Below the pieces are notes generated by a model, which ran no database searches, was not told where the DNA came from, and was given only the letters and a program-made list of their open reading frames with translations. Of a stretch of 64,000 nucleotides of DNA, positions 1,871-55,785 are shown piece by piece (the stretch's first letter is position 1; each line of letters starts with the position of its first letter). The translations under genes and the position numbers were made by a program. Location: the NCBI GenBank assembly GCA_045595365.1, contig JAZOAI010000033.1, positions 743-64,742 of the forward strand. The letters are read 5' to 3'. The DNA comes from Eubacteriales bacterium. Lineage in GTDB: Bacteria; Bacillota; Clostridia; Oscillospirales; JAAYXM01.

Positions 1871-2923
1871 TTACTTATCGTCCGTAAACTGCGAAAGAAC
1901 CTTGAGGCTTCCGGAGTTTAGGTCACGAATATCTTTTACGCCGTATTTCATCATTGCAAGTCTTGTGAGACCAAGACCGAAAGCAAAGCCTGTGTATTCC
2001 TCGGGGTCGATTCCGCCCGCCTTAAGAACCTCCGGGTGAATCATACCACACGGGCAAAGCTCAAGCCAACCGCTGTGCTTACAGGAAGCGCAACCCTCTC
2101 CGCCGCAGATAAGGCAGGAGATGTCAAGCTCAAATCCGGGCTCGACGAACGGGAAGAAACCCGGGCGGAGGCGAACCTTGATGTCCTTCTTGAAAACTTC
2201 AGAAAGCATAGTCTTCATAAAGAAGATGAGGTTTGAAATTGAAATATTCTTATCTACCATAACGCCTTCCATCTGGAAGAAGGTGTTCTCGTGGCAGGCA
2301 TCCGTTGCTTCGTTTCTGAAGCATCTCCCCGGGAAAATTGCCTTGATTGGCTTTCCTTCATTAACGAGCGCATCCTTATACTTTTTGTAGATAGCATTCT
2401 GCGCAGCCGACGTGTGTGACTTGAGAAGCTGGCCGTTTTCGAGATAATACGTGTCCTGCATATCACGCGCCGGATGGTTCTTCGGGATATTGAGAGCCTC
2501 GAAGCACTCATAGTCTGTTACTATTTCGCTGTAATCCTCAACAGCGAAGCCCATCGAACGGAATATCTCCTCACACTGGCGCTGGACAAGCGTGATGGGG
2601 TGATATGACCCGCGCTCAAGGCTTGCAGGGACTGACACATCAAACTCGGGCATAAGGTTATTCTCGCGCTCAATTTCTGCCGCGTGGATTGCCTCGCGCT
2701 TCTTCGAAATCTCCTCGCCTGCCTCTTCCTTAAGAACATTGACCGCCTGGCCAAACTCCTTCTTCTCCTCCGGAGAGAGGTTCTTCATATCCTTTAAAAG
2801 CTCGGTTATGAGGCCCTTCTTGCCGAGGTATTTAACTCGCACTTCTTCAAGAGCTTCCATTGTGCTGCATGCTTCAAGCTCTTTTAAAAGGTCAAGCTTC
2901 AGTGCGTTTGTTTTCTCTGACAT
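1871..2923 (-). CDS. pheS: Phenylalanine--tRNA ligase alpha subunit
   Basis: Translation from MSEKTNALKLDLL shows class II aaRS PheS features (HPARDMQDTYY, FRNEATDACHENTFFQMEG, GFAFGLGLTRLAM). I moved the start to the ATG at 2923, which has a GGAAATGG RBS. The 47 upstream codons of the track ORF lie in the T-box leader. Confidence 0.95.
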   Translation of the reverse strand: MSEKTNALKLDLLKELEACSTMEALEEVRVKYLGKKGLITELLKDMKNLSPEEKKEFGQAVNVLKEEAGEEISKKREAIHAAEIERENNLMPEFDVSVPASLERGSYHPITLVQRQCEEIFRSMGFAVEDYSEIVTDYECFEALNIPKNHPARDMQDTYYLENGQLLKSHTSAAQNAIYKKYKDALVNEGKPIKAIFPGRCFRNEATDACHENTFFQMEGVMVDKNISISNLIFFMKTMLSEVFKKDIKVRLRPGFFPFVEPGFELDISCLICGGEGCASCKHSGWLELCPCGMIHPEVLKAGGIDPEEYTGFAFGLGLTRLAMMKYGVKDIRDLNSGSLKVLSQFTDDK

Positions 2924-2951
2924 AACACCATTTCCTTTCGTTTTAAAATAA

Positions 2952-3205
2952 ATAAAAAACCCGCCCCGAAAAATCGGGACGAGCTGAAATTGCCCGCGGT
3001 ACCACCCAGATTCAGGAACTTTATTCCTGCACTTTTTCTGGCGCAATTGCGTGAGCGCCGACACCCTGCTTAGCCCTTCCGGTTTTCACAGAAAGCTCCC
3101 GCGCTGAAATTCATCTGCCGAGCCTTTGCGGAAACTCTCAGCCCAATGATTTCCACTCTCTTAAACAGCTCTGCACAAACTACTTACACGCGTTCATAGC
3201 TTATC
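2952..3205 (-). promoter_or_regulatory. T-box leader (tRNA-Phe responsive) controlling pheST
   Basis: The minus strand carries the T-box sequence GGGTGGTACCGCG (reverse complement of 2995-3007), an AGAGAG bulge, and a specifier loop GAUGAA-UUUC-AG (Phe codon at about 3106-3109). A terminator hairpin CCCG-ATTTTT-CGGG/GCGGG plus a T6 run ends near 2954. Confidence 0.85.
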
Positions 3206-3209
3206 TAAC

Positions 3210-41718: not shown

Positions 41719-41937
41719 AATACCTGTCTCCATTGGTATAAAATTTCACTTCTGTTTATATAATCAATATTTATTTGCGCTTTCATTTTCGGCAGAATCA
41801 TTCTATCATAAAAGCATGTGCTTTTCAACTAAGGCCTTGCCGCCTTGGCGCCCGAAGTATGCAATTTTTCTATCCCCACAAGAAATGCAAAGAAGATAGA
41901 GCTTTGCATTTAGTTTGGCACTTCATTAGAAAGAAAA

Positions 41938-41965
41938 TTCAGGAAGGGCAAATTGCTCTTCCTGA
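41938..41965 (-). terminator. Rho-independent terminator ending the ligase-ilvE-oxidoreductase operon
   Basis: TTCAGGAAG-loop-CTTCCTGAA, followed on the minus strand by TTTTCTTTC. A second hairpin lies at 41883-41911. Confidence 0.65.
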
Positions 41966-41972
41966 ATAGTTT

Positions 41973-42506
41973 TTAGTCTTTATATTCGATTCCTGCGTTT
42001 ATCGCTTTGAGGTTTACCTCAAGGAGGTTTGCGCGCTTTGCGGAAACGACTTTTTTGAGTGAATCCTCAATATTATCGGTTCTCATTCCGCACTCCTTCA
42101 TAAGCTTGCCTGTGATAATCATATTGGCAAGAGTCGGAGCTTCCATCTCCTGCGCCATCTTTGTTGCAGGGATGTAGAAGACCTTTACATCATCACGAGC
42201 TACCTTGCGCTCAATAAGAGTAGAATCGACAAGGATGATGCCCCCCGGGACAACTGCATCCTCATACTTATCAAGCGAGGGAAGGTTCATTGCAACAAGA
42301 ACATCAGGGCTTGAAACTATCGGTGAGCCGACGGGGTCATCAGAGAGGATAACGCTGCAGTTTGCAGTTCCGCCGCGCATCTCCGGACCGTAAGACGGGA
42401 GCCAGCTGAGCTGTCTGCCCTCGAGAAGGCCTTTATATGCAAGAAACTTTCCTGCGAAAAGAATGCCCTGGCCGCCGAAGCCTGCCAAAAGAATTTGAGT
42501 TGTCAT
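41973..42506 (-). CDS. 2-oxoacid:ferredoxin oxidoreductase, gamma subunit
   Basis: [14 protein letters not shown]...[15 protein letters not shown] is the signature of POR/KOR/VOR gamma subunits. Confidence 0.8.
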
Positions 42507-42508
42507 AA

Positions 42509-43261
42509 TTATGCTTCCTCCTTCTCTGCGCTCTTGTCCTTATAAACTCCGAGCGGATAGTACGGAATCATATTGTCATCGACCCACTTGAGCGCATCGT
42601 TCGGTGTGAGCCCCCAGTTTGTTGGACAGGTGGAAACGACCTCGATAAGCGAGAAGCCCTTACCCTCTACCTGATTCTGGAATGCTTTGAGGATAGCCTT
42701 TCCTGCTGCCTTAACATTCTTAACGCTGTTGACTGCAACACGCTCGATATACTGCGGGCCGTCAAGCGTTGCGAGCATTTCGGAAACGCGAATCGGATAA
42801 CCTGCTGTGTTGACATCACGGCCGTACGGCGAGGTCTGTGTAACCTGGCCGGGAAGCGATGTCGGAGCCATCTGGCCTCCTGTCATACCGTAGATTGCGT
42901 TATTGACAAAGATGATTGTTATGTTTTCATTCCTTGCTGCGGCGTGGACAGTTTCTGCCATACCGATGGATGCAAGGTCGCCATCTCCCTGATATGTGAA
43001 GATTACATTCTCCGGAAACGCGCGTTTTAAGCCTGTTGCAACAGCGGGAGCGCGGCCGTGAGCCGCCTCGACCATATCGCATGAGAAATAATCATATGCC
43101 ATAACCGAGCATCCGACCGGAGCAACACCGATAGTTTTGCCCTCAACTCCGAGCTTATCTATTGCCTCTGCAACAAGGCGGTGAATAATACCGTGAGTGC
43201 AGCCCGGGCAGTAGTGAAGCGGTGCATCTGTAAGACTTTTCGGTTTTTCAAATACTACCAT
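42509..43261 (-). CDS. 2-oxoacid:ferredoxin oxidoreductase, beta (TPP-binding) subunit
   Basis: YCPGCTHGI, GDGD...IG, NNAIYGMTGGQ. Confidence 0.85.
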   Translation of the reverse strand: MVVFEKPKSLTDAPLHYCPGCTHGIIHRLVAEAIDKLGVEGKTIGVAPVGCSVMAYDYFSCDMVEAAHGRAPAVATGLKRAFPENVIFTYQGDGDLASIGMAETVHAAARNENITIIFVNNAIYGMTGGQMAPTSLPGQVTQTSPYGRDVNTAGYPIRVSEMLATLDGPQYIERVAVNSVKNVKAAGKAILKAFQNQVEGKGFSLIEVVSTCPTNWGLTPNDALKWVDDNMIPYYPLGVYKDKSAEKEEA

Positions 43262-44322
43262 TATTTGCTACCTCCCTTGACTTCCATAATTTTTGCAAGA
43301 ACTTCTTCCGGTGACGGAATCATACCGCCGACGCGGTTGCAGAGATATACCGGTTTTTTGCAATCTGTTGCAAGGCGGATATCCTCAATCATCTGACCCA
43401 TTGAAAGCTCAACGCTTATAAATGCCTTGACCTTATCGGCAGCTTCCGCAAGAGGCTTCTTCGGGAACGGCCATACTGTAATCGGGCGAATCATTCCGAC
43501 CTTTACGCCCTCCTTGCGAGCTGCAACGACTGCATTCTTCGCAACGCGGGCAGCGATGCCGAAAGCAACAACGCAGTATTCTGCATCGTCCATCATAAAG
43601 CTTTCATATCTTGCTTCATTCTCTTCAATCAGCTTATATCTCTCATATCTCTCGATATTCTTCTTCTCAAGCTCCTCGGGCTTTAAGTAGAGAGAGTTGA
43701 TGATGTTGTGTTCACGCTTGCAGCCGGTGCCTGTAACAGCCCAGTCCTTTTCTGATGAACCGTCATTCTCCTCGGGGAGAACAACAGGCTCCATCATCTG
43801 ACCCATGGTTCCGTCAGCAAGGAGCATTGCGGGCATACGGTATTTCTCCGCAAGCTCGAATGCAAGAGCTGTCATATCAGCCATTTCCTGAACGGATTCG
43901 GGAGTGAGAACTATTATGCGGTAGTCACCGTGGCCGCCGCCCTTTGTGGACTGGAAATAGTCCGACTGTGAAGGCTGAATTCCGCCAAGGCCCGGGCCTC
44001 CGCGCTGAACGTTTACGATAAGTGCGGGAAGGTCTGCACCTGCGATATAGGAGATACCCTCCTGCTTAAGTGAGATTCCGGGGCTTGAAGAGGATGTCAT
44101 AACACGCTTTCCCGTTCCCGCAACGCCATATACCATATTGATAGCGGAAATCTCGCTTTCTGCCTGGAGGAAGGTCCCTCCGATTTTCGGCATTTTCTTT
44201 GCCATATACGCCGCGACCTCTGTCTGCGGGGTTATAGGATATCCGAAGTAGTGGCGGCAGCCTGCACGGATAGCAGCTTCCGCAATAGCTTCGTTACCTT
44301 TCATTAAAACTTTTTCTGCCAT
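43261..44322 (-). CDS. 2-oxoacid:ferredoxin oxidoreductase, alpha subunit (VorB-like)
   Basis: MKGNEAIAEAAIRAGCRHYFGYPITPQTE..., 353 aa. Confidence 0.85.
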   Translation of the reverse strand: MAEKVLMKGNEAIAEAAIRAGCRHYFGYPITPQTEVAAYMAKKMPKIGGTFLQAESEISAINMVYGVAGTGKRVMTSSSSPGISLKQEGISYIAGADLPALIVNVQRGGPGLGGIQPSQSDYFQSTKGGGHGDYRIIVLTPESVQEMADMTALAFELAEKYRMPAMLLADGTMGQMMEPVVLPEENDGSSEKDWAVTGTGCKREHNIINSLYLKPEELEKKNIERYERYKLIEENEARYESFMMDDAEYCVVAFGIAARVAKNAVVAARKEGVKVGMIRPITVWPFPKKPLAEAADKVKAFISVELSMGQMIEDIRLATDCKKPVYLCNRVGGMIPSPEEVLAKIMEVKGGSK

Positions 44323-44335
44323 TTTACCTCACACC

Positions 44336-44542
44336 TCACTTTTCTACAGTAATTACACAGTCAGGGCACATTGTCGCGCAGAACGCACAACCAATGCACT
44401 TTTCCTGGTCTGTAATCTCTGCGGGAGAATGACCTTTTTTGTTGATTTTGTCTTTTGCAAGACGGATGATGCCCTTAGGGCAGGCTGTGACACAGAGACC
44501 GCAACCCTTACAGATGTCTGTGTCGAAGGTTACTTTTGCCAT
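44336..44542 (-). CDS. 2-oxoacid:ferredoxin oxidoreductase, delta subunit (2x[4Fe-4S] ferredoxin-like)
   Basis: Two CxxCxxCxxxCP motifs (CKGCGLCVTACP and CIGCAFCATMCP). Start at the ATG at 44542, 8 nt after AGAGGGG. Confidence 0.8.
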   Translation of the reverse strand: MAKVTFDTDICKGCGLCVTACPKGIIRLAKDKINKKGHSPAEITDQEKCIGCAFCATMCPDCVITVEK

Positions 44543-44559
44543 AAATAACACCCCTCTGT

Positions 44560-45228
44560 TTAAAATATTTTTTTCTGAAGCCGGAGAGGGAAAAATCTCC
44601 GGTTTTTATCCTTTTCGCATAAGCTCTCCATCGCCGTCGTCATAACAAGCGGAACGCCTGCAAGCTCTGATAACTCCTGCGCGAGGGCTTCTGTCTTTTC
44701 GATTGCTTCAATATCCGTTTCACTTCCGATATTGGAGTTGTTGACAATCCCCGTGAACGGAATTCCCGCAGCCGCTTCTATCTCGCGGAAAACCTCGTAT
44801 GCACTTTCTGCATCGCGAGTCAATGGGCGGAAGAAGTTTACGACAAACAGATTGTCAAAATCGTTTTCCTCAAGTATATACGGGCGATATCTCCCCAGCG
44901 CATAAGCTCCGCGGTCATCGCCGCCTATATCCATAACAACGCGGCAATCTCTGCGCTGAACAAGCCCATATACCTCCTGCGGAAGTGCCGGCAAATCAAC
45001 GCTCGTATTTGCAAACGGGAGTGCAACAACCTCGACTCCCGCCGCTTGGAGTTCTTCTAAGCTGTCCTTCGTGCGGAAGTATGGGTTTACCACGTCAATA
45101 TCAGCTATTGCAACCGCATCCCCCTGACTTTTCAGATAAAGCGCGAAGTTAACCGCGATATTCGTTTTTCCGCTGCCGTAGTGTCCGCAAAAAAGAGTTA
45201 TCCTCTTGTTTAAAGAATTACTGACCAA
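44560..45228 (-). CDS. P-loop NTPase of the MinD/ParA/CooC-like (SIMIBI) type
   Basis: A deviant Walker A motif, GHYGSGKTN, near the N-terminus, with DIGGD as a probable Walker B motif. TTG start overlapping the ilvE stop by 19 nt. Confidence 0.55.
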   Translation of the reverse strand: MVSNSLNKRITLFCGHYGSGKTNIAVNFALYLKSQGDAVAIADIDVVNPYFRTKDSLEELQAAGVEVVALPFANTSVDLPALPQEVYGLVQRRDCRVVMDIGGDDRGAYALGRYRPYILEENDFDNLFVVNFFRPLTRDAESAYEVFREIEAAAGIPFTGIVNNSNIGSETDIEAIEKTEALAQELSELAGVPLVMTTAMESLCEKDKNRRFFPLRLQKKIF

Positions 45229-46277
45229 TTGAACTTATCCTCGCATTCGCCCCACTGGATTCCTGTTATCGTGTCATAGAGTTTCTGGCTGACTTCGCCG
45301 ATTGTGTTGTTGTTTATGAGCATAACGTCATCCTTATAGCGAAGCTTGCCGACCGGAGAAATAACCGCAGCGGTTCCTGTTCCGAAGCACTCTTCGAGCT
45401 TGCCTGACTTCTGAGCATCAAGAAGCTCTTCAACGGAAATTTTTCTCTCCTCGACTTCATACCCCCAGGACTTGCAGACTTCGATTACGGAGTTTCTTGT
45501 AATACCCGGGAGGATGCTGCCGGAGAGCTCCGGGGTAACAATCTTGCCGGCAATCTTGAAGAAGATATTCATCGCGCCGACTTCTTCGATGTATTTTCTC
45601 TCAACACCGTCAAGCCAGAGAACCTGAGAATAGCCTTCATCGTGTGCCTTGACCTGAGCAGCTAAGCTTGCTGCGTAGTTTCCGCCTGTTTTTGCAAATC
45701 CCATACCGCCCTTGACAGCGCGGACATAGTCATCCTCAATCCAGATTCCGACAGGAGCAAGGCCACTTGCGTAATACGCGCCTGATGGTGAGAGGATTAT
45801 GATAAAGAGATATGTTTTTGACGGTGCAACACCGAGGAATTCGTCTGTCGCGATAATGAACGGGCGAATGTAGAGCGATGTACCTGGGGTAGTGGGAATC
45901 CAGTCCTCATCGACCTTGACAATAGCCTTGCAAGCCTCAACGAAGAGTTCTTCAGGAAGCTCAGGAATGCAGAGGCGCTTGTTTGTGGCGTTTGTGCGCT
46001 TTGCGTTCATATCGGGCCTGAAAAGGCGGGCTTTTCCGTCTTTTCCCCTGTATGCCTTAAGGCCTTCAAACATTTCCTGCCCATAGTGGAATACCATAGC
46101 GGAGGGGTCAAGGGAAAGCTTTTCATAAGGAACTATTCTTCCGTCATGCCAGCCCTTTCCTTCCGTGTAGTTCATTAAGAACATATGGTCGGTAAAGACC
46201 TTTCCGAAGCCGAGCTTTGACTCATCCTGCGGATGTGCCTTCGGAGTTGTTGTTTTTGTAACCGAAAAGTTATACAT
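45210..46277 (-). CDS. ilvE: Branched-chain-amino-acid aminotransferase
   Basis: FGKVFTDHMF, HYGQEMFEGLKAYR, TGGNYAASL and GTGTAAVISPV are typical of the 355-aa YbgE/YwaA-type IlvE. Confidence 0.9.
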   Translation of the reverse strand: MYNFSVTKTTTPKAHPQDESKLGFGKVFTDHMFLMNYTEGKGWHDGRIVPYEKLSLDPSAMVFHYGQEMFEGLKAYRGKDGKARLFRPDMNAKRTNATNKRLCIPELPEELFVEACKAIVKVDEDWIPTTPGTSLYIRPFIIATDEFLGVAPSKTYLFIIILSPSGAYYASGLAPVGIWIEDDYVRAVKGGMGFAKTGGNYAASLAAQVKAHDEGYSQVLWLDGVERKYIEEVGAMNIFFKIAGKIVTPELSGSILPGITRNSVIEVCKSWGYEVEERKISVEELLDAQKSGKLEECFGTGTAAVISPVGKLRYKDDVMLINNNTIGEVSQKLYDTITGIQWGECEDKFNWSVIL

Positions 46278-46318: not shown

Positions 46319-48607
46319 TTAAAGCTTGTTGCGCTGAATCTTTCCGCTTACCGTCTTCGGGAGACTCTCGCGGAAGACAACAAGACGCGGGTATTTATAT
46401 GGCGCGGTATGCTCTTTAACGTATGTCTGGATTTCCTTTTTGAGTTCCTCCGTCGGCTCTGTCCCCTTTGTGAGAACGATGCTTGCCTTAACTATCTGGC
46501 CGCGAACCTCGTCGGGAGCGGCGGAAACTCCGCACTCAAGAACATACGGAAGCTCCATAATAACGCTCTCAATTTCAAACGGGCCTATGCGATAGCCGGA
46601 GGATTTGATAACATCGTCAACACGGCCGACGTACCAATAGAAGCCGTCTTCATCGCGCCAGGCGGTATCGCCGGTGTGGTAGTAGCCGTCGTGGAGAACC
46701 TCAAGGGTTTTTTCCTCATCGCGGTAATAGCCTTTGAAGAGGCCGCAGGGATGCCCGTCTTTTACATTGATGACAATCTCGCCCGTCTCGCCAACTGCCA
46801 CCTCTTCGCCATTTTCGTTGATAAGCTCGACATTATATATGGGAGCCGGCTTACCCATAGAACCGATTTTGTGTGGCGCACCGACCATATTGCCTATAAT
46901 CATCGTGCTTTCTGTCTGCCCAAATCCCTCGATTATCTGAAGCCCTGTCGCCTTTTCAAACTGGCGGTAAACCTCAGGATTGAGAGCTTCGCCTGCCGTC
47001 GTCATATGCTTGACTGATGAGAAGTTGTATTTTGAAATATCTTCTTTGATCATCATCCGGAGCATTGTCGGAGGCGCGCAGAAGGTTGTTATATTATATT
47101 TCTCAAACATCGGAAGGATGTCTGATGCATCAAAGCGGTCAAAGTCGTAAACAAACACTGCTGCTTCGCAAAGCCACTGGCCGTAGAGTTTACCCCACAT
47201 CGACTTTGCCCAACCGGTTTCGGAGATTGTGAAATGAAGGCCGTCGGGGTCGACATTGTGCCAGTATTTCGCTGTATGGAAATGCCCGAGCGGATATTTG
47301 TGGCTGTGCGCCGCGATTTTCGGGTAGCCGGTAGTCCCTGATGTAAAGAACATAAGGAGAAGGTCATCTCCGCAGGGGGAATCTGCAGTCCGCTCAAAGT
47401 GAGAGCTAAAGAGCGTATACTCCTCGTCAAAGCATCTCCAACCGTCACGCTCACCGCCAACGATAATCTTGTTGAGAAGCTCGGGGCATGTTTTTGCCGC
47501 TTCATCTACCTGGTGAGCGGCATCTCCGTCTGCCGTGCAGATTACCGTGTTGACGCCTGCCGCCTGGAAGCGGTATTCAAAGTCGTGAACCTGCAGCTGA
47601 TTTGTAGCAGGGATTGCGATTGCGCCAAGCTTATTTAAACCTATCATCGCAAACCAGAACTGGTAATGACGCTTGAGGACCAGCATAACGCGGTCGCCCT
47701 TCTTGATTCCGAGAGACTTGAAGTAGTTCGCACATCTTGCAGATTCACGCTTTATATCCGCAAACGTAAAGCGGCGCTCCGTCTTGTTTATGTCAATATG
47801 TAGCATCGCAAGCTTTTCCGGCTCACGCTCGGCAAGCGCATCAACAAGGTCGAAGGCGAAGTTGAACCCGTCGGTGTTTTTGAACTTGATTGACGTCGGG
47901 GTTCCGTTTTCGTTTTCTTCGGTGTCGATATAGTTGCGGTAAATTCTCGTTTTTGTATCCTTCTTTACCTCGCGAACCTCGGAAATCGCCTTTGTCGGCG
48001 AAAGCTCAGGAATAGGCTCTCCGGAAGGATTGAGAACGATTGCGTAGAAAACACAATCCGCTCCGTTTGTCGCAATCATGCCGTGTGGCGTGTTACTGTC
48101 ATAGTATATGCTGTCACCGGGGCCGAGAATTTCGCGGTGGTCCCCTATCTGCACGAGCAGATGCCCCTCGACGATTATATCACACTCCTGGCCATCGTGA
48201 GAGGTGAGTTCAATATCAGACTCACTTATGCTATCGTCGTATGAAATTCTGACGTAAAGCGGCTCTGCGATTCGGTTCTGGAACGCATATGCTAGGTTAT
48301 AGTATGTCATCCCGTGAGCCTGGCCTATCTTCTGACCGAGACCTGACCGCGTAACCGTAAACGACTTGAGCGTCGGGCTCACGCCCTCAATAATGTCGGT
48401 AACATTGACGCGGAGAACTGTTGCACATCTGTAAATAAACGCAAAGTTTAAATCGCTCTCTCCCAGCTCGCAGCTGTTGTATTCCTCGACTGTCACTCCC
48501 GTAGCTGACGCCATTTCTTCGGGAGACAATCCCTCAATCTCGCGAAGCTCGCGTATGCGCGCCGCCATTTCTTTGATTTTGTAATCAAGCCCTGTCATTT
48601 TCGCCAT
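46319..48607 (-). CDS. XRE-HTH + cupin + AMP-forming acyl-CoA ligase fusion (paralog 1, behind the Val T-box)
   Basis: Residues ~10-75 form an HTH (IRELREIEGLSPEEMASATGVTVEEYNSCE). Residues ~120-190 form a cupin (DIIVEGHLLVQIGD...GDSIYYDSNTPHGM). The rest is an ANL adenylating enzyme (FFTSGTTGYPK, GFGQTE, YHTGD, SGKIQR). Confidence 0.8.
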   Translation of the reverse strand: MAKMTGLDYKIKEMAARIRELREIEGLSPEEMASATGVTVEEYNSCELGESDLNFAFIYRCATVLRVNVTDIIEGVSPTLKSFTVTRSGLGQKIGQAHGMTYYNLAYAFQNRIAEPLYVRISYDDSISESDIELTSHDGQECDIIVEGHLLVQIGDHREILGPGDSIYYDSNTPHGMIATNGADCVFYAIVLNPSGEPIPELSPTKAISEVREVKKDTKTRIYRNYIDTEENENGTPTSIKFKNTDGFNFAFDLVDALAEREPEKLAMLHIDINKTERRFTFADIKRESARCANYFKSLGIKKGDRVMLVLKRHYQFWFAMIGLNKLGAIAIPATNQLQVHDFEYRFQAAGVNTVICTADGDAAHQVDEAAKTCPELLNKIIVGGERDGWRCFDEEYTLFSSHFERTADSPCGDDLLLMFFTSGTTGYPKIAAHSHKYPLGHFHTAKYWHNVDPDGLHFTISETGWAKSMWGKLYGQWLCEAAVFVYDFDRFDASDILPMFEKYNITTFCAPPTMLRMMIKEDISKYNFSSVKHMTTAGEALNPEVYRQFEKATGLQIIEGFGQTESTMIIGNMVGAPHKIGSMGKPAPIYNVELINENGEEVAVGETGEIVINVKDGHPCGLFKGYYRDEEKTLEVLHDGYYHTGDTAWRDEDGFYWYVGRVDDVIKSSGYRIGPFEIESVIMELPYVLECGVSAAPDEVRGQIVKASIVLTKGTEPTEELKKEIQTYVKEHTAPYKYPRLVVFRESLPKTVSGKIQRNKL

Positions 48608-48636: not shown

Positions 48637-48922
48637 AAAAAACACTCGTCCCAAAGTTGATAATCCTTGAGACGAGTGAGATAAACAATACACCCGCGGT
48701 ACCACTCAAATTGTGCAAAAAATGCACCGCTCAGGCTCTACTAAGCCTTATGCCTTTACGCAGCAATCACGGAAAGGTTCTACTGACCGAAATGATTCGG
48801 ATTTCTTCCTCTCAGCTCAGAAGCTACAACCGCAAAGCACGTGCCAGATAGCTCACACCAACCGCTACCTCTCTGAAAGCCCGTTCTCCTTGCGCACTCT
48901 TCGTCAAAGCTTTTAATAATTT
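48637..48922 (-). promoter_or_regulatory. T-box leader, specifier read as GUA (Val)
   Basis: On the minus strand: K-turn and helix (GAAG/CUUC), AGAGAG bulge, distal loop GGUUGGUGUGA, specifier loop 3' side GUU-GUA-G (codon at 48827-48825), T-box AGTGGTACCGCGGG, and terminator CACTCGTCTCAA/TTGGGACGAGTG plus T6. Confidence 0.75.
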
Positions 48923-48928
48923 GTGTTT

Positions 48929-48957
48929 ATTATATATCAACTTTCAAGCTTTGTCAA
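48929..48957 (-). promoter_or_regulatory. Consensus sigma-A promoter for the Val T-box unit
   Basis: TTGACA (48957-48952), 17 nt, then TATAAT (48934-48929). Confidence 0.6.
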
Positions 48958-48981
48958 CCCTTTTCGGAGACATTTACGCCA

Positions 48982-51249
48982 CTAAAGCTTGTTTCGCTGA
49001 ATCTTTCCGCTTATTGTTTTCGGAAGCTCGTCGCGGAATACGACAAGACGCGGATACTTATACGGCGCAGTGTGTTCCTTGACGTAGTTCTGGATTTCCT
49101 TCTTAAGCTCCTCTGTCGGCTCGGTTCCCTTTGTGAGAACAATGCTCGCCTTTACTATCTGCCCGCGAAGGTCATCCGGTTCTGCCGAAACTCCGCACTC
49201 AAGGACATACGGAAGCTCCATTATGACACTCTCGATTTCAAACGGGCCGATGCGATATCCCGAAGACTTGATAACATCGTCAATACGGCTTACATACCAG
49301 AAATATCCGTCTTCATCGCGCCAGGCCGTGTCACCCGTGTGATACATGCCGTAGCGCATACATTCTTCCATTTTTTCATCATCGTCAAGGTACTGCCTGA
49401 AGAGCCCGACAGGGGTATTCTTATCAAGCTTTACGACAATCTCTCCGACCTCGCCGTTTGCCACTGTGTTTCCGTCGGGGTCAACAATATCAATATCATA
49501 CTGCGGAGAAGCTTTTCCCATAGAGCCTATGCGCGGAGTTGTCCCGAAGAGGTTTGCTATGATGAGCGTAGTCTCCGTCTGACCAAACCCTTCCATAATC
49601 TTAAGCCCGGTTGCTTTTTCAAACTGCTTGTAAACCTCGGGGTTTAATGCTTCTCCGGCGGTTGTCATATGGTGGATTGAAGAAAGGTCGAATTTCGACA
49701 GGTCTTCTTTTATAAACATACGCAGCATTGTCGGAGGTGCGCAGAAGGTTGTGATGTTATACTTTGCAAACATCGGGAGAATGTCCGTTGCGGCAAAGCG
49801 GTCAAAGTCGTAAACAAACACAGCGCCCTCGCAGAGCCACTGGCCGTAGAGCTTGCCCCAGAGTGACTTTCCCCAGCCTGTGTCAGATATTGTGAAATGG
49901 AGCCCGTCACGCTCGCAGCAATGCCAGTATTTCGCCGTCACAAAGTGCCCGAGGGCATATGTGTGCTTGTGTTCAACCATCTTCGGATTTCCGGTTGTCC
50001 CTGATGAGAAGAACATAAGCGCAGCATCATCGCCGCACGAGGTGTCTTCGCATCTTGCAAAATTACTTGAAAAGCGGCCGTATTCGCTGTCAAAATCGTG
50101 CCAGCCGTCACGCTTGCCGCCAACGAGGATTTTCGTCGTAAGGCTCGGGCATCGCTCTGCCGCTCGCTCCGCCATCTCTGCAGCATAGTCATCCGCTGTG
50201 CAGATGATTGCAGAAACGTTCGCCGCGCTGAAGCGGTATTCAAAGTCGTGATCCTTAAGCTGATGAGTTGCAGGAATTGCAACCGCGCCGAGCTTATGAA
50301 GCGCGACCATTGCAAACCAGAACTGGTAGTGCCGTTTTAATACTATCATAACGCGGTCGCCGCGCTTTATTCCGAGTGATGCGAAGTAGTTTGCACATCT
50401 TGCCGACTCGCGCTTGATGTCCTCAAACGTAAAGCGGCGCTCGGTCATATTCTTATCCACATGGAGCATCGCAAGCTTCGTGGGAGCCTTTTCTGCAATA
50501 GCATCAACAACATCAAACCCGAAATTGAAGCTTTCGGTGTTTGTGAACTCAATGCTCTCCAAAACGCCCTCCGAGCTTTCCTTGCACTTTACAAACTTCT
50601 CGCAGGAGAGCTTTGTGGCAGGGCGAAGTGAAACCACGCTTTCGCGGATTTCTTCTTCTTTTACATCCTCGCCGGGAAGAACGACTGCACAGAAAACGCA
50701 ATCCTTGCCGTCGACCGCAATCATTCCGTGAGGGGTTGAGCTGTTATAGTAGATGCTGTCGCCCTCGTGAAGAACCTCAACATTTTTCCCAACCTGAACC
50801 TTAAGCGAACCGCTGATGACAATGTCAAACTCCTGGCCGCTGTGTTTTGTAAGGTGGATTGGCTTATTCTGCTGCTCCTCTGAATATTCATATCTTACCC
50901 AATAGGGTTCTGCAATCTTGTTTTTAAATTTGGGCGCAAGATTTGCAATCGAGATTCCCTCCTCCTTTGCAGTCTCCTGCCCTTTTCCCTTGCGGGTGAC
51001 CGTGTAGGAAGAAAGGTGGGCATCCCCTCCGCCGAGAAGCTCGATTATCTCAATCCCGAACGCAAGCGCGCATTTGTGAATAAATGTAAACGGCATATCT
51101 GCTGAGCCACTCTCATATGCCTTGTATTCATCCTCTGAAACTTCGCAGAGCTTTGCAAGCTCCGGGGCGCTCATTCCCATAATCTCCCGCATCTCGCGAA
51201 TTCGGGTCGCGACCTCCGTTAACTGCGTCATTGATTTTTCCAAAGTCAT
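48982..51249 (-). CDS. XRE-HTH + cupin + AMP-forming acyl-CoA ligase fusion (paralog 2, behind the Ile T-box)
   Basis: Same three-domain layout as 46319-48607 and alignable end to end. The C-terminal ~100 aa are almost identical (DVIKSSGYRIGPFEIESVIMELPYVLECGVSA...). Confidence 0.8.
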   Translation of the reverse strand: MTLEKSMTQLTEVATRIREMREIMGMSAPELAKLCEVSEDEYKAYESGSADMPFTFIHKCALAFGIEIIELLGGGDAHLSSYTVTRKGKGQETAKEEGISIANLAPKFKNKIAEPYWVRYEYSEEQQNKPIHLTKHSGQEFDIVISGSLKVQVGKNVEVLHEGDSIYYNSSTPHGMIAVDGKDCVFCAVVLPGEDVKEEEIRESVVSLRPATKLSCEKFVKCKESSEGVLESIEFTNTESFNFGFDVVDAIAEKAPTKLAMLHVDKNMTERRFTFEDIKRESARCANYFASLGIKRGDRVMIVLKRHYQFWFAMVALHKLGAVAIPATHQLKDHDFEYRFSAANVSAIICTADDYAAEMAERAAERCPSLTTKILVGGKRDGWHDFDSEYGRFSSNFARCEDTSCGDDAALMFFSSGTTGNPKMVEHKHTYALGHFVTAKYWHCCERDGLHFTISDTGWGKSLWGKLYGQWLCEGAVFVYDFDRFAATDILPMFAKYNITTFCAPPTMLRMFIKEDLSKFDLSSIHHMTTAGEALNPEVYKQFEKATGLKIMEGFGQTETTLIIANLFGTTPRIGSMGKASPQYDIDIVDPDGNTVANGEVGEIVVKLDKNTPVGLFRQYLDDDEKMEECMRYGMYHTGDTAWRDEDGYFWYVSRIDDVIKSSGYRIGPFEIESVIMELPYVLECGVSAEPDDLRGQIVKASIVLTKGTEPTEELKKEIQNYVKEHTAPYKYPRLVVFRDELPKTISGKIQRNKL

Positions 51250-51279: not shown

Positions 51280-51558
51280 AATAAAAACTCGCCTCAAAGG
51301 TTTCTTTGAGACGAGTTCGATAACAAAACCGATACCCGCGGTACCACTCAAATTGTGCAAGAAAATGCACCACTCAGGCTCCAGCAAGCCTTATGCCTTT
51401 ACGCAGCAATCACGGAAGGCGCCTACTCACCGCAAGGGTTTCGGACCTCCAGCTCAGAAGTGATGGGAGAAAACAGTTCACTATCGGGATTTCACCGCCC
51501 CCGACTCTCTGAAAAGCTTCGTTGTTTTTCCGTCTTCGTCACAGCTTTTATTTATTTT
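51280..51558 (-). promoter_or_regulatory. T-box leader, specifier read as AUC (Ile)
   Basis: Same K-turn and GAAG/CUUC helix as the Val leader. Specifier loop 3' side is CCC-AUC-A (codon at 51464-51462). It also has the AGAGAG bulge, distal loop GGCGGUGAAAU, T-box AGTGGTACCGCGGG, and terminator AACTCGTCTCAAAG/CTTTGAGGCGAGTT plus a T run. Confidence 0.75.
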
Positions 51559-51564
51559 TTTATA

Positions 51565-51593
51565 ATTTTACACCCGCAAAAAGCTTTTGTCAA
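51565..51593 (-). promoter_or_regulatory. Sigma-A promoter for the Ile T-box unit
   Basis: TTGACA, 17 nt, then TAAAAT, starting 16 nt after the stop of the upstream gene. Confidence 0.55.
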
Positions 51594-51608
51594 GCACTTT
51601 TTTAATTT

Positions 51609-54065
51609 TTATTCAAGCCCTAAAAGCTTCGCCGCTTCCTCGCGCATTTTATACTTGAGGATTTTCCCCGCTGCGTTCATCGGGAAGCTCTTTACGAACA
51701 TAAAATATCTCGGAACCTTATGGCGCGCTATGTGAGCGTTTCCAAACTCGCGCATCTCATTCTCGTCAGCTTCCTCGCCGTCGTGGAGGATAATCCACGC
51801 ACAGCACTCCTCACCGTATCTCTTGTCGGGAACGCCGACAACCTGAACGTCGCGAACCTTCGGGTTTGTGAGGTAGAATTCCTCTATCTCGCGTGGATAC
51901 AGGTTTTCACCGCCGCGGATAATCATATCCTTGAGGCGGCCTGTGACCTTGTAATATCCGTCAGGAGTTCTGCAGCAGATGTCACCCGAATGGAGCCAGC
52001 CGTCGGCATCTATCGTCTGTGCGGTGGCGCGGGGCATTTTGTAGTACCCCTTCATTATGTTAAATCCACGCGCTACAAATTCGCCGCTCTCCCCATCCGG
52101 AAGCTCTTCTCCCGTTTCGGGGTCAATAATCTTGCACTCAACTCCCGGGAACGCGCTTCCGACAGTTTCAACTCGGTGGTCGATATCCTCATTGACCTCG
52201 CCCATAGTGCAGCCCGGGGATGCCTCAGTCTGGCCGTAAACGCTTATAATCTCCTTCATATTCATCTCATCTGCAGCGCGGCGCATAAGATCTGCAGGGC
52301 AGTTTGCGCCTGCCATTATGCCGGTGCGGATATGAGAGAAGTCTGTTTTTTGGAAATCCGGATGATTGAACATCGCAATAAACATCGTCGGGACTCCATT
52401 GAAGCAGGTTATTCTCTCGTCATTAACACAGGCGAGTGAGGATGCCGGAGAAAAGTATGGCATCGGAAAGAGCGTTCCGCCGTGAGTCATCGTAGATGTC
52501 ATGGAAAGAACCATCCCGAAGCAGTGGAACATCGGAACCTGAATCATCATACGGTCGGCAGTTGAGAGATCCATACGGTCGCCTATCGTTTTGCCGTTAT
52601 TGACTATATTTCTGTGAGTGAGCATAACCCCCTTCGGGAACCCTGTTGTTCCTGAGGTGTATTGCATATTGCAGACATCGTCAGGCTCAACGAGCGATGC
52701 GCGGCGGCGCACCTCTTCCTTCGGAACATCAGCCGCGCGGGCAAGCATATCCTCCCAGGTGAGGCAGCCTGCCATTTCAAAGCCGACTGTTACTACATTC
52801 CTGAGAAACGGAAGGTTTTTTGCATAAAGCGGTTTTCCCGGCTGCAGGGTAGCAAGCTCAGGGCAAAGCTCCTCTATAATCTCGCGATAGTTTGTATCCT
52901 TGCAGTCTTCAATCATAACGAGCGTGTGGGTGTCTGACTGGCGAAGCAAGTATTCAATCTCGTGGATTTTATATGCCGTATTGACAGTTACAAGAACTGC
53001 TCCGATTTTTGTTGTTGCCCAGAAGGTTATAAACCATTGGGGAACATTCGTCGCCCATATGGCAACGTGGTCTCCGGCTTTTACGCCAAGGGAAATGAGA
53101 GCCGCTGCCGCCTCATCAACATCGCGGCGAAATTCAGAATACGTTCTTGTGTAATCAAGTGTTGTATACTTAAAAGCATACTGGTCGGGGTACCTCTCTG
53201 CCATAGTGTCGAGAACCTGAGAGAAGGTCTTGTCTATTACCTCGTACTTTTCCCAGACGTATGTCCCCGTTTTTGCTCTGTTATAGAACACATTCTCGCG
53301 GGAATTCTTTATTCCGCCGAGATTCTCAATGTAATTTGAAAAATGCGTCAGAACAATGTCTGCATCGTCAATTTCATCGTTCCAGGCAACAGAGATAAAG
53401 CCGTCATAGTTAAGCGACGAAAGCGCATCTATAACCTCTCCCACAGGGAGGTCTCCCTCTCCGATGAGGACATTTGTTTCACCCTTGCGGTCACCGAGTC
53501 TTACATACTTAATATATGCGCCAAGGTTTGTGATTGTATCCTCCGCACTTTCCCGTGCGCAGAAATATGTTTCTCTGACATCCCACGCCGCGCCGAGAGC
53601 TGCACTTGAGAAGAATTTTATTATGTCAATTACATTTTCCGTGTGCGAAAGATAGTCTGACGTTGAGAGAAGAATTTGCACATCTGAGCCTTCTGCCCGC
53701 TCAATTGCAGGAGAAAGCCTTTTTTCGAGAAGCCTAAAATCCGTTTCCTTTTCAATATGGACAATCACGCTCGGGATACCTGCACTAAGTGCCATATCAA
53801 CATATCTTTTTACAGCTTCTCCGTCAGCCTCGTCTGAATCAAGAGCATACGGATATATAAGCGACGACACCTCAAGGGCGCGGTTTAAAAGCTTGCGTTT
53901 TGAATCAGAAACCTTGCCGCTTCTGAGAATGCTGTCAGGATGATTCATCCTTTCTTTTTCGGCATCGTATATCTCAAAGCCTGAAAATCCATAGTCATAA
54001 GCATACTTGCAGACATCGAGAAAGGTGGCACACCTGATGTTTTTTGTCGAAAAGGTGAATTTCAT
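51609..54065 (-). CDS. Fusion protein: xylose-isomerase-like TIM-barrel domain + AMP-forming acyl-CoA ligase
   Basis: The N-terminal ~270 aa resemble sugar-phosphate isomerase/epimerase (AP_endonuc_2) TIM barrels (GFSGFEIY, VIVHIEK, LPVGEVIDALSSLNYDGFISV). The C-terminal ~550 aa form an ANL ligase (YTSGTTGFPKGVMLTH, YGQTE, WLHSGD, RGGENLYP, GKILK). The ATG at 54065 lies 6 nt after GAGGAGG and 1 nt after the upstream stop. Confidence 0.75.
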   Translation of the reverse strand: MKFTFSTKNIRCATFLDVCKYAYDYGFSGFEIYDAEKERMNHPDSILRSGKVSDSKRKLLNRALEVSSLIYPYALDSDEADGEAVKRYVDMALSAGIPSVIVHIEKETDFRLLEKRLSPAIERAEGSDVQILLSTSDYLSHTENVIDIIKFFSSAALGAAWDVRETYFCARESAEDTITNLGAYIKYVRLGDRKGETNVLIGEGDLPVGEVIDALSSLNYDGFISVAWNDEIDDADIVLTHFSNYIENLGGIKNSRENVFYNRAKTGTYVWEKYEVIDKTFSQVLDTMAERYPDQYAFKYTTLDYTRTYSEFRRDVDEAAAALISLGVKAGDHVAIWATNVPQWFITFWATTKIGAVLVTVNTAYKIHEIEYLLRQSDTHTLVMIEDCKDTNYREIIEELCPELATLQPGKPLYAKNLPFLRNVVTVGFEMAGCLTWEDMLARAADVPKEEVRRRASLVEPDDVCNMQYTSGTTGFPKGVMLTHRNIVNNGKTIGDRMDLSTADRMMIQVPMFHCFGMVLSMTSTMTHGGTLFPMPYFSPASSLACVNDERITCFNGVPTMFIAMFNHPDFQKTDFSHIRTGIMAGANCPADLMRRAADEMNMKEIISVYGQTEASPGCTMGEVNEDIDHRVETVGSAFPGVECKIIDPETGEELPDGESGEFVARGFNIMKGYYKMPRATAQTIDADGWLHSGDICCRTPDGYYKVTGRLKDMIIRGGENLYPREIEEFYLTNPKVRDVQVVGVPDKRYGEECCAWIILHDGEEADENEMREFGNAHIARHKVPRYFMFVKSFPMNAAGKILKYKMREEAAKLLGLE

Positions 54066-54066
54066 A

Positions 54067-55458
54067 TTAATCCTCCTCAAAAACAATCTTGTTGAGTGCA
54101 TTGATATATGCACGGATGCTTGCCGCTACAATGTCAGTGGAAATTCCGTTGCCTGAATAGAGCTTCCCGTGGCTGCGCAGACGGACAAGAGCAGATCCGA
54201 GAGCTTCCTTGCCCTCTGTAACCGCCTGAATCTGGAAGTCGTCAAGCTCGTAGTGGTAACCCACGCTCTGCTCAATAGCGCGGAAAACAGAGTCAATCGG
54301 CCCGTCACCCGTGCTGACTCCGTGAAGGAGCTTATCGCCCGTGCGGAGAGTTACCTGCGACATAGAGTCTGCGAGGTTTCCGCAAGTTGTTGTGTAACTC
54401 TCGAGATGATATTTTGACGGCGCCTGCATAGCAAAGCTTGCAATAAGAGCTTCAAGCTCTTTTGCTCCGACACTTCCCTTTTTCTCACAAACCTGAGAAA
54501 GCGCGGAATGAACATTCCCGCAATCCTCATCTGTCAGGTCATAGCCGAGGATCCGCGCAGCTTCTGCCACCTGGGTGATTGTGCTGTCTGTTGTGAGGAA
54601 AATCGAGCTTTTTGAACCGTCTTCTGATGTTTCTTCAGTCTTAACGCTGTGGTTGATTTTCTTAAGCAACGCTTCCGTATCCGAATGAACCTGAGTGTTT
54701 TTAAGCCCTGTGAAGATGCCAAAGCTCTCCCCTCTTTTGCTGATCGCATCGGAAAGCTCGCCCGTTATGAGGGTTGATGAACCGCAGAGGGCGCACTTAA
54801 GCCCCGAAGCACCTGCTTCGATCGCTGAAATCGCTGTTGCGACCGCCATTCTGAGGTTGTTTGAAACAGAAACACAGACCGAAACCGAAACCTTACCCGA
54901 AATCCTGCCCACAAGCTCTGCCATTTCTGCAGGGAGGAAAACTCCCGCATCATCACAGAGAGTTACGCTTCCTGCACCGGCGCGCTCAGCTTCTAAAACG
55001 CAATTTTCGAGAAACTCGAGGTTTGCGCGGGTTGCATCAAGCGCAACAAACTCAACATCGCTGCATAATGCTTTTGCATTTGCTACAAGCTCTGAAATTT
55101 TAGTGAGCATTTTTTCAGCCTTGATGTGGTATGTATACTCCATCGAAACAGTCGATGTGGGAAGCGCGACCTGAAGCCGCGGGTGTGCAGCGTCTTTTAT
55201 GCACTCCCACGCCTGTTCCGCTTCGGCTTCTGAAAAACCGACAGGAATTGCAACGATGCAATCCTTGAGGGTTGAGGAAATTGTTTTATATATAATGGTG
55301 TCCTCGCGAAGCTTTTTAATCGGAGCGAGCTCAACAACGTCAACTCCGCAAGCCTCCGCGCAAGCCGCAATAGCTGTTTTTTCACGGAAAAGAAGATTTG
55401 CCTCGCGCTCGTTTGCAAGGTTTTTGAGAGTAATGTCTGCAATAGTGATTTTTTTCAT
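54067..55458 (-). CDS. LeuA/CimA-like protein with a degenerate catalytic barrel and a conserved C-terminal LeuA regulatory (dimerisation) domain
   Basis: The C-terminus (GDGPIDSVFRAI...QAVTEGKEALGSALVRL...GNGISTDIVAASIRAYINALNKI) matches the LeuA allosteric domain. In the N-terminal barrel, DITLKNLANE replaces DTTLRDGEQ and VSVSNNLRMAV replaces HxHNDxGxAxAN. ATG at 55458, 8 nt after AAAGGAG. Confidence 0.7.
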   Translation of the reverse strand: MKKITIADITLKNLANEREANLLFREKTAIAACAEACGVDVVELAPIKKLREDTIIYKTISSTLKDCIVAIPVGFSEAEAEQAWECIKDAAHPRLQVALPTSTVSMEYTYHIKAEKMLTKISELVANAKALCSDVEFVALDATRANLEFLENCVLEAERAGAGSVTLCDDAGVFLPAEMAELVGRISGKVSVSVCVSVSNNLRMAVATAISAIEAGASGLKCALCGSSTLITGELSDAISKRGESFGIFTGLKNTQVHSDTEALLKKINHSVKTEETSEDGSKSSIFLTTDSTITQVAEAARILGYDLTDEDCGNVHSALSQVCEKKGSVGAKELEALIASFAMQAPSKYHLESYTTTCGNLADSMSQVTLRTGDKLLHGVSTGDGPIDSVFRAIEQSVGYHYELDDFQIQAVTEGKEALGSALVRLRSHGKLYSGNGISTDIVAASIRAYINALNKIVFEED

Positions 55459-55499
55459 CGAAAAAACTCCTTTCAAAATTCAAGGGTTCGGGCTTTCGC

Positions 55500-55785
55500 A
55501 ACAAAAAACGCCTTCGCCTCATTGTTGCTTCAAAGAGACGAAAGCGTTAAATTTAAAATTTAACTTTCCGCGGTACCACTCTTTTTCATCCGTTTCGGAT
55601 GCCCTTAGATGCCAGCACATCTTAACTCTGTTACGGGAGTGCCCGTCTGCCCCTACAATTTGAAGTTCACGGCAGCCGCTCCGCGGTGAGTTCTGCAAGT
55701 CTTTTCCAATGCCTTGCACCAACCGGCATCTCTCTTCAGATAAAAGAATTTTGCATACTATTCCGCATCACTGCGTTTTTATTTG
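55500..55785 (-). promoter_or_regulatory. T-box leader, specifier CUC (Leu)
   Basis: A canonical Stem I: K-turn GUGAUG/CGGA, 5' AAUAGUA, AGAGAG bulge, distal loop GGUUGGUGCAA, and specifier loop GAA-CUC-A (codon at 55690-55688). It also has T-box AGAGTGGTACCGCGG and a 14-bp terminator AACGCTTTCGTCTC/GAGGCGAAGGCGTT plus T6. Confidence 0.85.

Follow-up and report, generated by a model that had tools for sequence, protein, structure and literature searches.

A valine-codon T-box leader at the head of a probable isobutyrate-to-valine operon in an uncultured Oscillospirales bacterium

In this report we analyse a leader RNA, and the genes located behind it, in a 64,000-nucleotide stretch (the window) of contig JAZOAI010000033.1 from a Eubacteriales bacterium of the Oscillospirales. 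Judged by its sequence and its predicted fold, the leader is a genuine T-box with a valine (GUA) specifier codon, called here the Val leader. It lies on the minus strand; all positions are given in window coordinates. We are highly confident that it is a transcription-attenuating tRNA-Val T-box heading a unit of about 7 kb (lig3, ilvE, a P-loop protein gene and vorDBAC), so that enzymes converting isobutyrate to valine would be induced. What the analysis shows comprises the architecture of the RNA, its codon, the degree of conservation and covariation, the alternative between terminator and antiterminator, and the families of the downstream genes.

Results

The leader and its promoter

The elements of the leader are as follows.

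48929-48957, minus strand: sigma-70-type promoter (TTGACA 48957-48952, 17-nt spacer, TATAAT 48934-48929)
48665-48916, minus strand: T-box leader RNA, Rfam RF00230, full model 1-219
48815-48910, minus strand: Stem I, from the model alignment, RNAalifold and pair counts
48827-48825, minus strand: specifier GUA, with the following purine G at 48824, from model columns and counts in 74 leaders
48772-48813, minus strand: Stem II with S-turn, 5' side GGAAGAAA, 3' side CAGUAGAA
48751-48771, minus strand: Stem IIA/B region CGUGAUUGCUGCGUAAAGGCA, from the model alignment, with at least 90% conservation and helix 8
48733-48748, minus strand: extra hairpin AGGCUU-AGUA-GAGCCU, an insertion relative to the Rfam model (alignment columns 188-203)
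48713-48727, minus strand: Stem III GUGCA-UUUUU-UGCAC (helix 10), flanked by GAGCG (5') and AA (3')
48667-48709, minus strand: antiterminator, A1 UUGAG/CUCAA and A2 GCGGGUG/CACUCGU (helices 11-12)
48637-48678, minus strand: intrinsic terminator, 14-bp stem 48678-48643 and U-run 48642-48637

Positions 48637-48957 begin and end exactly with two elements, the -35 hexamer on one side and the last base of the terminator U-run on the other. Read from 5' to 3', the promoter gives way to some 280 nt of leader, after which come a hairpin with UUUUUU behind it, the ribosome-binding site (RBS) AAGGAG and the ATG of lig3 at 48607. With 12 of 12 consensus matches the promoter was the top site of the 12.5 kb covered by the promoter scan.

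For comparison we used 80 species-representative genomes (loci L001-L080) encoding Lig3 orthologues at 77-94% identity. All are metagenome-assembled genomes labelled Acutalibacteraceae, Oscillospiraceae, Eubacteriales, Clostridia and similar, and most of them were recovered from the gut of ruminants, other animals and humans. The Val-leader alignment (A2), to which all counts out of 74 refer, contains the window's own leader and 73 orthologous ones, while a wider set holds 76 T-box leaders upstream of Lig3; leader counts in the Val, Ile and Leu groups likewise include the window's own. A promoter with at least 11 of 12 matches stands at the same place in 60 of the 74 Val leaders.

Against the Rfam T-box model (RF00230, positions 1-219, curated gathering score 93) the Val leader gave 86.9 bits, with an E-value of 1.7e-17 over the whole window. 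Reporting by E-value yielded four T-boxes in the window, each matching the full model 1-219: 55780-55531 (126.1 bits), 3206-2972 (87.1 bits), 48916-48665 (the Val leader) and 51551-51304 (79.1 bits); the default scan at the gathering threshold recovered in the window only the Leu leader at 55780-55531. The Val leader loses score in the specifier loop, which has a 3-nt deletion on its 5' side and departs from the consensus on its 3' side, and also through insertions in Stem II and the linker. A plus-strand match to the opuB motif (16.5 bits vs 75, E 2.3) was rejected as chance.

An earlier reading made from the letters alone (the sequence-only reading) had proposed here a GUA T-box gating the third ligase together with ilvE and the oxidoreductase. 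The motifs that it quoted are present, AAGC-UUUGAC-GAAG-AGUG on the 5' side (48912-48895) and GUU-GUA-G-CUUC-UGA-GCU on the 3' side (48830-48814), and its T-box assignment is borne out by the full-model match, the architecture obtained with RNAalifold and the strong covariation in 74 leaders.

Architecture and covariation

At the base of Stem I, G48910-C48909 pairs with G48816-C48815 and is joined to the K-turn UUUGAC/UGA. Helix GAAG 48902-48899 with CUUC 48823-48820 follows, then the specifier internal loop and the upper helix, so that the stem reads GC/UUUGAC/GAAG...GUA-G/CUUC/UGA/GC, with a K-turn base and an internal loop that holds the codon plus a purine. Further up are the AG bulge AGAGA (48874-48870) and the distal loop GCGGUUGGUGUGAGC (48865-48851); AGAGA and the GGUG of the distal loop are invariant or nearly so in the 74 leaders. 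Helices 1, 2 and 5 of Stem I are 96-100% paired and the upper helix (helix 3) 80%, all with compensatory changes; the helices flanking the specifier loop are 100% paired, again with compensatory changes.

In Stem II the AAGA and UAGA strings are invariant, and helix 6 is 99.3% paired with compensatory changes in 5 of 6 pairs. Helices 6-8 and 10 covary, which covers Stem II, Stem IIA/B and Stem III, and the flanks of Stem III fit the RRRxG-Stem III-AA motif (PMC7583486). The extra hairpin (helix 9), located between Stem IIA/B and Stem III, is 99.3% paired with compensatory changes in 5 of 6 pairs; it has a counterpart in the Ile and Leu leaders. RNAalifold, run on the 74-leader alignment without reference to Rfam, recovered the Stem I base with K-turn, the specifier-loop helix, the upper helix, the distal hairpin, Stem II, IIA/B, the extra hairpin, Stem III and the antiterminator with a 7-nt bulge.

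Two controls were applied to the covariation, column shuffles (500) and partners slid by 1-3 columns. Paired cells amounted to 96.0%; the shuffles gave 85.1%, and slid partners no more than 47.6%. Changes on both sides were found in 37 of 55 pairs, in 554 cells vs 150 in the shuffles. The covariation score was 0.432 vs 0.215 in the shuffles, and 0 of 500 shuffles reached the observed value. The consensus fold of the Val leader exceeds chance.

The specifier codon

In the covariance-model alignment, GGUUGUAG occupies the eight unpaired columns on the 3' side of the specifier loop, whose consensus is GAA-n-NNN-A; the specifier position is thereby filled by GUA followed by G. The paralogous Ile leader has UCCCAUCA in the equivalent columns, and the GUA of the Val leader is homologous by position to its AUC-A.

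A regular-expression and stem heuristic for reading specifiers failed on 13 of the 76 Val leaders and on many Leu leaders, and specifiers were therefore taken by eye and from column counts in MAFFT alignments. Among the 74 leaders the first base of the codon is G and the second U without exception, and the third is A in 71 and C in 3. The next base is G in 65 and A in 9, so a purine follows the codon in every leader; as four-base strings these are GUAG (65), GUAA (6) and GUCA (3), the GUC variants belonging to L017, L022 and L052. Since only GUA and GUC were seen, the codon has changed solely synonymously, both triplets coding for valine. The bases before the codon vary more: T57/G8/C6/A3 at -3, T60/C9/A5 at -2 and T72/G1/C1 at -1. 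Once the 13 heuristic failures had been read by eye, the 76 T-box leaders upstream of Lig3 gave the same specifier result. In TBDB, GUA (0.61) and GUC (0.29) are the two commonest valine specifiers (PMC7778990).

The helix directly 3' of the loop is 100% paired in the 74 leaders, in the variants GAAG/CUUC, GAAA/UUUC and GGAG/CUCC, and a covarying, fully paired helix next to the loop fixes the register. The loop itself appears to depart from the canonical S-turn (5' AGUA, 3' GAA): its 5' side is AGUG here and AGUA or AGGG in the orthologues, and its 3' side has GUU or UUU at the place of GAA. Model columns, valine codons in all 74 leaders, the position shared with Ile AUC and the TBDB frequencies together sustain GUA as a Val specifier.

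The terminator/antiterminator switch and the tRNA

The T-box sequence AAUUUGAGUGGUACCGCGGG, 14 nt long, is present and conserved, and the 7-nt bulge UGGUACC (48704-48698) is identical in 74 of 74 leaders. The predicted folding energy is -10.8 kcal/mol for the antiterminator and -21.4 kcal/mol (z -7.3) for the terminator, which is followed by six U. The 5' arm of the terminator overlaps the 3' arm of the antiterminator; because CACUCGUCUCAA is common to both structures, only one of them can form, and because the terminator is the stronger, termination is expected as the default state, in line with the usual T-box logic. The RBS of Lig3 (AAGGAG, 48622-48617) lies 15 nt past the U-run and in neither structure, which argues for control of transcription rather than of translation.

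The UGGU of the bulge predicts a discriminator A on the tRNA. Five tRNAs were found in the 80 related loci, none of them tRNA-Val(UAC). The sole tRNA-Val among these loci is a tRNA-Val(CAC) in L011, which ends in A73-CCA and so matches UGGU but is not the UAC isoacceptor.

The genes behind the leader

The genes following the leader, and the end of the probable transcription unit, are listed below.

46319-48607, minus strand: lig3, 762 amino acids, HTH_XRE, cupin and AMP-forming acyl-CoA synthetase (Pfam)
45210-46277, minus strand: ilvE (NF009897, 512 bits, cut-off 307)
44560-45228, minus strand: CbiA/ParA-like P-loop protein, 222 amino acids, weak Pfam match
44336-44551, minus strand: delta ferredoxin subunit of 2-oxoisovalerate:ferredoxin oxidoreductase (VOR), 2x[4Fe-4S]
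43261-44322, minus strand: VorB, alpha subunit (NF005507, 562 bits, cut-off 399)
42509-43261, minus strand: VOR beta subunit, TPP_enzyme_C
41973-42506, minus strand: VOR gamma subunit (vorC), POR
41928-41967, minus strand: hairpin with U-rich tail immediately behind vorC, where the transcription unit probably ends

VOR is identified by an alpha subunit that scores above the VorB cut-off and by adjoining open reading frames (ORFs) for the beta, gamma and delta-ferredoxin subunits. From lig3 through vorC, neighbouring genes overlap or lie no more than 41 nt apart, and the scan of this string found no good promoter- or terminator-like site inside it; a promoter-like site stands before the next gene beyond the vorC hairpin. 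This layout suggests that lig3 to vorC are co-transcribed. The gated set named by the sequence-only reading, that is the ligase, ilvE and the oxidoreductase, is thus supported by the close spacing and by the terminator after vorC, co-transcription being the likely consequence.

The core of Lig3 (residues approximately 240-762) matches PDB entry 3etc with E 6e-190. This structure, 3ETC, is Macs, the medium-chain acyl-CoA synthetase of M. acetivorans, for which 2-methylbutyrate is the preferred substrate (PMC10455477). MbcS, the best-matching NCBIfam family, activates isobutyrate and 2-methylbutyrate and handles isovalerate poorly (PMC10026030). Lig3 belongs to a very large family: at least 8000 database proteins match with E no higher than 1e-30, and relatives are encoded at no fewer than 596 places among species-representative genomes.

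Both Lig3 (46319-48607) and its neighbour Lig2 (48982-51249) carry an N-terminal HTH_XRE plus cupin module of about 240 amino acids. In its architecture the module is that of a DNA-binding regulator responsive to small molecules, here fused to an enzyme. No conserved operator or operator-like palindrome for the helix-turn-helix (HTH) domain was found in the 74 promoters, where only the -35 and -10 hexamers are kept; a candidate operator overlapping the promoter was dropped for this reason.

The P-loop ORF (44560-45228) starts with TTG, overlaps the end of ilvE by 19 nt and has no NCBIfam match. In nearly all loci that extend that far, the P-loop gene stands directly upstream of the VOR genes, at 52-88% identity. 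Its product may be a maturation factor for the Fe-S enzyme.

The Leu, Ile and Val leaders

The other T-boxes of the window and the genes that go with them are as follows.

51304-51551, minus strand: Ile (AUC-A) T-box, before lig2 (48982-51249)
55531-55780, minus strand: Leu (CUC-A) T-box, before the LeuA-like gene (54067-55476) and lig1
51609-54113, minus strand: lig1, a TIM-barrel-fused ligase of another family
2972-3206, minus strand: fourth T-box, specifier UUC-A, below the gathering score, preceding pheS (1871-3064)

Two sister leaders had been read earlier as Ile-AUC and Leu-CUC, which together with Val-GUA would cover the three branched-chain amino acids. Both sisters proved real, with AUC-A in 51551-51304 and CUC-A in 55780-55531, and the Leu/Ile/Val set is conserved across the clade. 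Leader and gene go together without exception: AUC stands before Lig2 in 60 of 60 cases, CUC or CUG before the LeuA-like gene in 32 of 32, and GUA or GUC before Lig3 in 74 of 74. Lig2 is 63% identical to Lig3 and shares its HTH-cupin fusion. The proposed use of MbcS/Macs-like enzymes for the two alpha-branched acids and of another ligase family in the Leu unit is consistent with the poor isovalerate use of MbcS.

All three leaders have near-consensus promoters of their own. The stop codon of Lig2 and the -35 hexamer of the Val leader are only about 25 nt apart, with no terminator in this gap, and the units are thus chained. The order Val T-box, Lig3, P-loop gene, VOR, IlvE occurs in most of those of the 80 genomes whose contig is long enough, and the arrangement seen most often elsewhere starts with the Ile T-box and Lig2 and continues with Val T-box, Lig3, P-loop gene, VOR, IlvE, Leu T-box, LeuA-like gene. 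By this comparison of gene orders, the window's lineage is the one that moved ilvE next to Lig3.

Some further features of these units were noted. The LeuA-like protein (54067-55476) is divergent and scores under the cut-off for every 2-isopropylmalate synthase model, and the fusion partner of Lig1 is a xylose-isomerase-like TIM barrel (AP_endonuc_2). Of the 60 Ile leaders, 33 have A and 4 have G next to AUC, but 23 have C, which breaks the usual purine rule. Within the window, a comparison of 48637-48960 (Val) with 51280-51596 (Ile) shows some 95% identity over the part that runs from Stem IIA/B to the T-box, and divergence in Stem I. Across 56 genomes the identity of the 3' half is 0.766 for Val-Ile pairs within a genome, 0.706 for Val-Ile pairs between genomes and 0.743 for Val-Val orthologues, and the half with Stems I and II behaves in an orthologue-like way. 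The within-genome value is thus above even that of the orthologues, a hint that gene conversion has acted on the 3' halves of the Val and Ile paralogues. The UUC-A T-box is, by its codon and its gene, an ordinary Phe synthetase leader.

Proposed mechanism

RNA polymerase would start at the promoter 48957-48929, and Stem I of the emerging leader would offer GUA (48827-48825) to the anticodon of tRNA-Val(UAC), with the AG bulge and the distal loop docking the tRNA elbow. If the tRNA is uncharged, its 3' ACCA would pair with UGGU (48704-48701) of the bulge and stabilise the weak antiterminator, and the genes would be transcribed. If it is charged, the stronger terminator would form and transcription would end at about 48637. 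Of the induced enzymes, Lig3 would convert isobutyrate, ATP and CoA to isobutyryl-CoA; VOR, running in reverse, would join isobutyryl-CoA and CO2 with reduced ferredoxin to give 2-oxoisovalerate; and IlvE would turn 2-oxoisovalerate into valine. In this scheme we infer that the tRNA binds, that the genes are co-transcribed, that the pathway runs towards valine and that Lig3 acts on isobutyrate. The anabolic direction fits both induction by uncharged tRNA-Val and an AMP-forming ligase, by which acid is activated and not released. An operon converting isobutyrate to valine under a Val T-box is most likely what this locus encodes.

Discussion

Several observations weigh against the interpretation given above. 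The score of the Val leader, 86.9 bits, is under the Rfam gathering score of 93. Its specifier loop appears non-canonical: the 5' side is just AGUG, compared with 7 nt in the consensus, GUU stands at the usual position of the S-turn GAA, the model posterior probabilities are low there, and the codon is followed by G where A is usual. The tRNA search of the window found no tRNA genes and hence no tRNA-Val(UAC). The locus was seen only in low-share DNA metagenomes, with no RNA-seq run containing it. On the side of the enzymes, the best NCBIfam match of Lig3, MbcS (NF047394), reaches 443.5 bits vs an equivalog cut-off of 850; Lig3 also carries the HTH-cupin module, and isobutyrate is a presumed substrate. 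Finally, VOR and IlvE are needed for the Ile and Leu routes too, yet they stand behind the Val gate only; either basal readthrough is sufficient, or other copies exist, or the chain of leaders acts as a combined gate.

A rival reading shifts the codon to one of the offset triplets UGU (Cys), UUG (Leu) and UAG, in which case the leader would answer to a non-Val tRNA. The string UUGUAG does include UGU and UUG, the loop appears to lack the canonical GAA S-turn that would set the register and its posterior probabilities are low, and TBDB likewise tests the frames -1, 0 and +1. We give this reading next to no credence. The fully paired, covarying GAAG/CUUC helix directly 3' of the loop stands against it, as does the AUC-A in the equivalent columns of the paralogous leader. 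In the UGU frame the next base would be C in three genomes. The discriminator of bacterial tRNA-Cys is U73; this frame would need a UGGA bulge, and the bulge is UGGU in all 74 leaders. In the UUG frame the next base would be U, and the variable first base (T60/C9/A5) would give CUG and AUG; UAG is a stop codon. The UGU and UUG offsets, named in advance as outcomes that would overturn the valine assignment, are thus not what the leaders contain, and the downstream genes encode a valine keto-acid oxidoreductase and IlvE. The low score, the atypical S-turn and the HTH_XRE-cupin module on the first gene would also suit a decayed, non-functional T-box, with expression constitutive or otherwise controlled, for instance by the HTH-cupin part of the ligase. 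This is very improbable in our estimate, because the codon, AG bulge, distal loop, Stem II S-turn, 14-nt T-box sequence and terminator are kept in 74 genomes despite divergence of the ligase to about 77% identity, with 554 compensatory cells, and because the promoters hold no conserved operator-like palindrome.

A rather different objection accepts a Val-specific T-box and assigns the operon to acyl-CoA primers for lipids, to valine degradation or to a different acid. In S. aureus, MbcS, the nearest named family, has its role in making lipids (PMC10026030), the ligase is well under the MbcS equivalog cut-off, and VOR enzymes, which can run in both directions, are known best from catabolism. 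We regard such a function as unlikely: induction by uncharged tRNA-Val is sensible only for valine supply, AMP-forming ligases activate acids rather than release them, the three steps that lead to valine are all provided by the ligase, VOR and IlvE, and the paralogous ligases under the Ile and Leu leaders match three known carboxylation routes. With somewhat more weight, though still as a tentative idea that is probably not correct in full, the Leu, Ile and Val leaders might be read as one chained, multi-input circuit. As the units have their own promoters and no terminator between them, transcripts from upstream must also pass the next T-box. VOR and IlvE would then be made only when the Val gate opens, and each specifier would tell which acid its ligase takes: isobutyrate in the case of Val, 2-methylbutyrate in that of Ile and isovalerate in that of Leu. 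The HTH-cupin module might be a second sensor, by which the Ile and Val ligases would sense acid availability at the protein level, like BirA for biotin.

The isobutyrate-to-valine operon under a Val T-box, which we prefer, may be set beside known systems. The leader resembles canonical transcriptional T-boxes with Stem II, of the B. subtilis tyrS type, in its K-turn Stem I, specifier loop, AG bulge, distal loop, Stem II S-turn, IIA/B, Stem III, UGGN bulge and terminator/antiterminator alternative, and it shares with GUA valS leaders the commonest valine specifier. Unlike both, it gates a metabolic operon and not an aminoacyl-tRNA synthetase; it also departs from canonical T-boxes in the loop shortened to AGUG, GUU in place of GAA, the G after the codon, the extra covarying hairpin and the score below gathering. 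In controlling branched-chain amino acid supply it is comparable to the Leu (CUC) T-box that controls the ilv-leu biosynthesis operon in Bacillus and Clostridia. That system has a single Leu leader over the de novo acetolactate pathway, whereas here Leu, Ile and Val leaders are chained, the Ile and Val leaders gating MbcS/Macs-like ligases and the Leu leader a LeuA-like gene with a TIM-barrel-fused ligase; the route, unlike that of ilv-leu, appears to be salvage by reductive carboxylation.

The catalytic core of Lig3 is like those of MbcS (S. aureus) and MacsMa (3ETC), enzymes that both prefer alpha-branched C4/C5 acids, while its N-terminal HTH_XRE plus cupin part is missing from both. Synthesis of valine from isobutyrate in rumen anaerobes was described from labelling work by Allison and Peel (1971), as cited in PMC7356843. 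The set of ligase, oxidoreductase and transaminase, in gut and rumen genomes, corresponds to the reductive carboxylation of isobutyrate, 2-methylbutyrate and isovalerate, from which rumen and gut anaerobes, as known since the 1960s, obtain Val, Ile and Leu (Allison and co-workers, 1966-1971); their work was labelling biochemistry in other organisms. Our literature search returned no paper tying T-boxes to VOR, branched-acid ligases, isobutyrate or reductive carboxylation; key comparative T-box studies lay outside that search, so that an earlier description is possible. The RNA belongs to a very well known class, and its regulon is apparently undescribed.

Conclusions

The switch itself is a textbook one, and the value lies in the unusual genes behind it. 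Three of the four T-boxes of the window score below the gathering score; pipelines that use this threshold would miss them, and T-boxes of the clade will be under-reported. Three codon-specific leaders and three different ligases beside VOR and IlvE, in an arrangement conserved in the 80 genomes examined, give direct predictions of enzyme specificity. For the biology of these bacteria, the arrangement suggests that uncultured Oscillospirales tune the salvage of each acid to the charging state of the respective tRNA.

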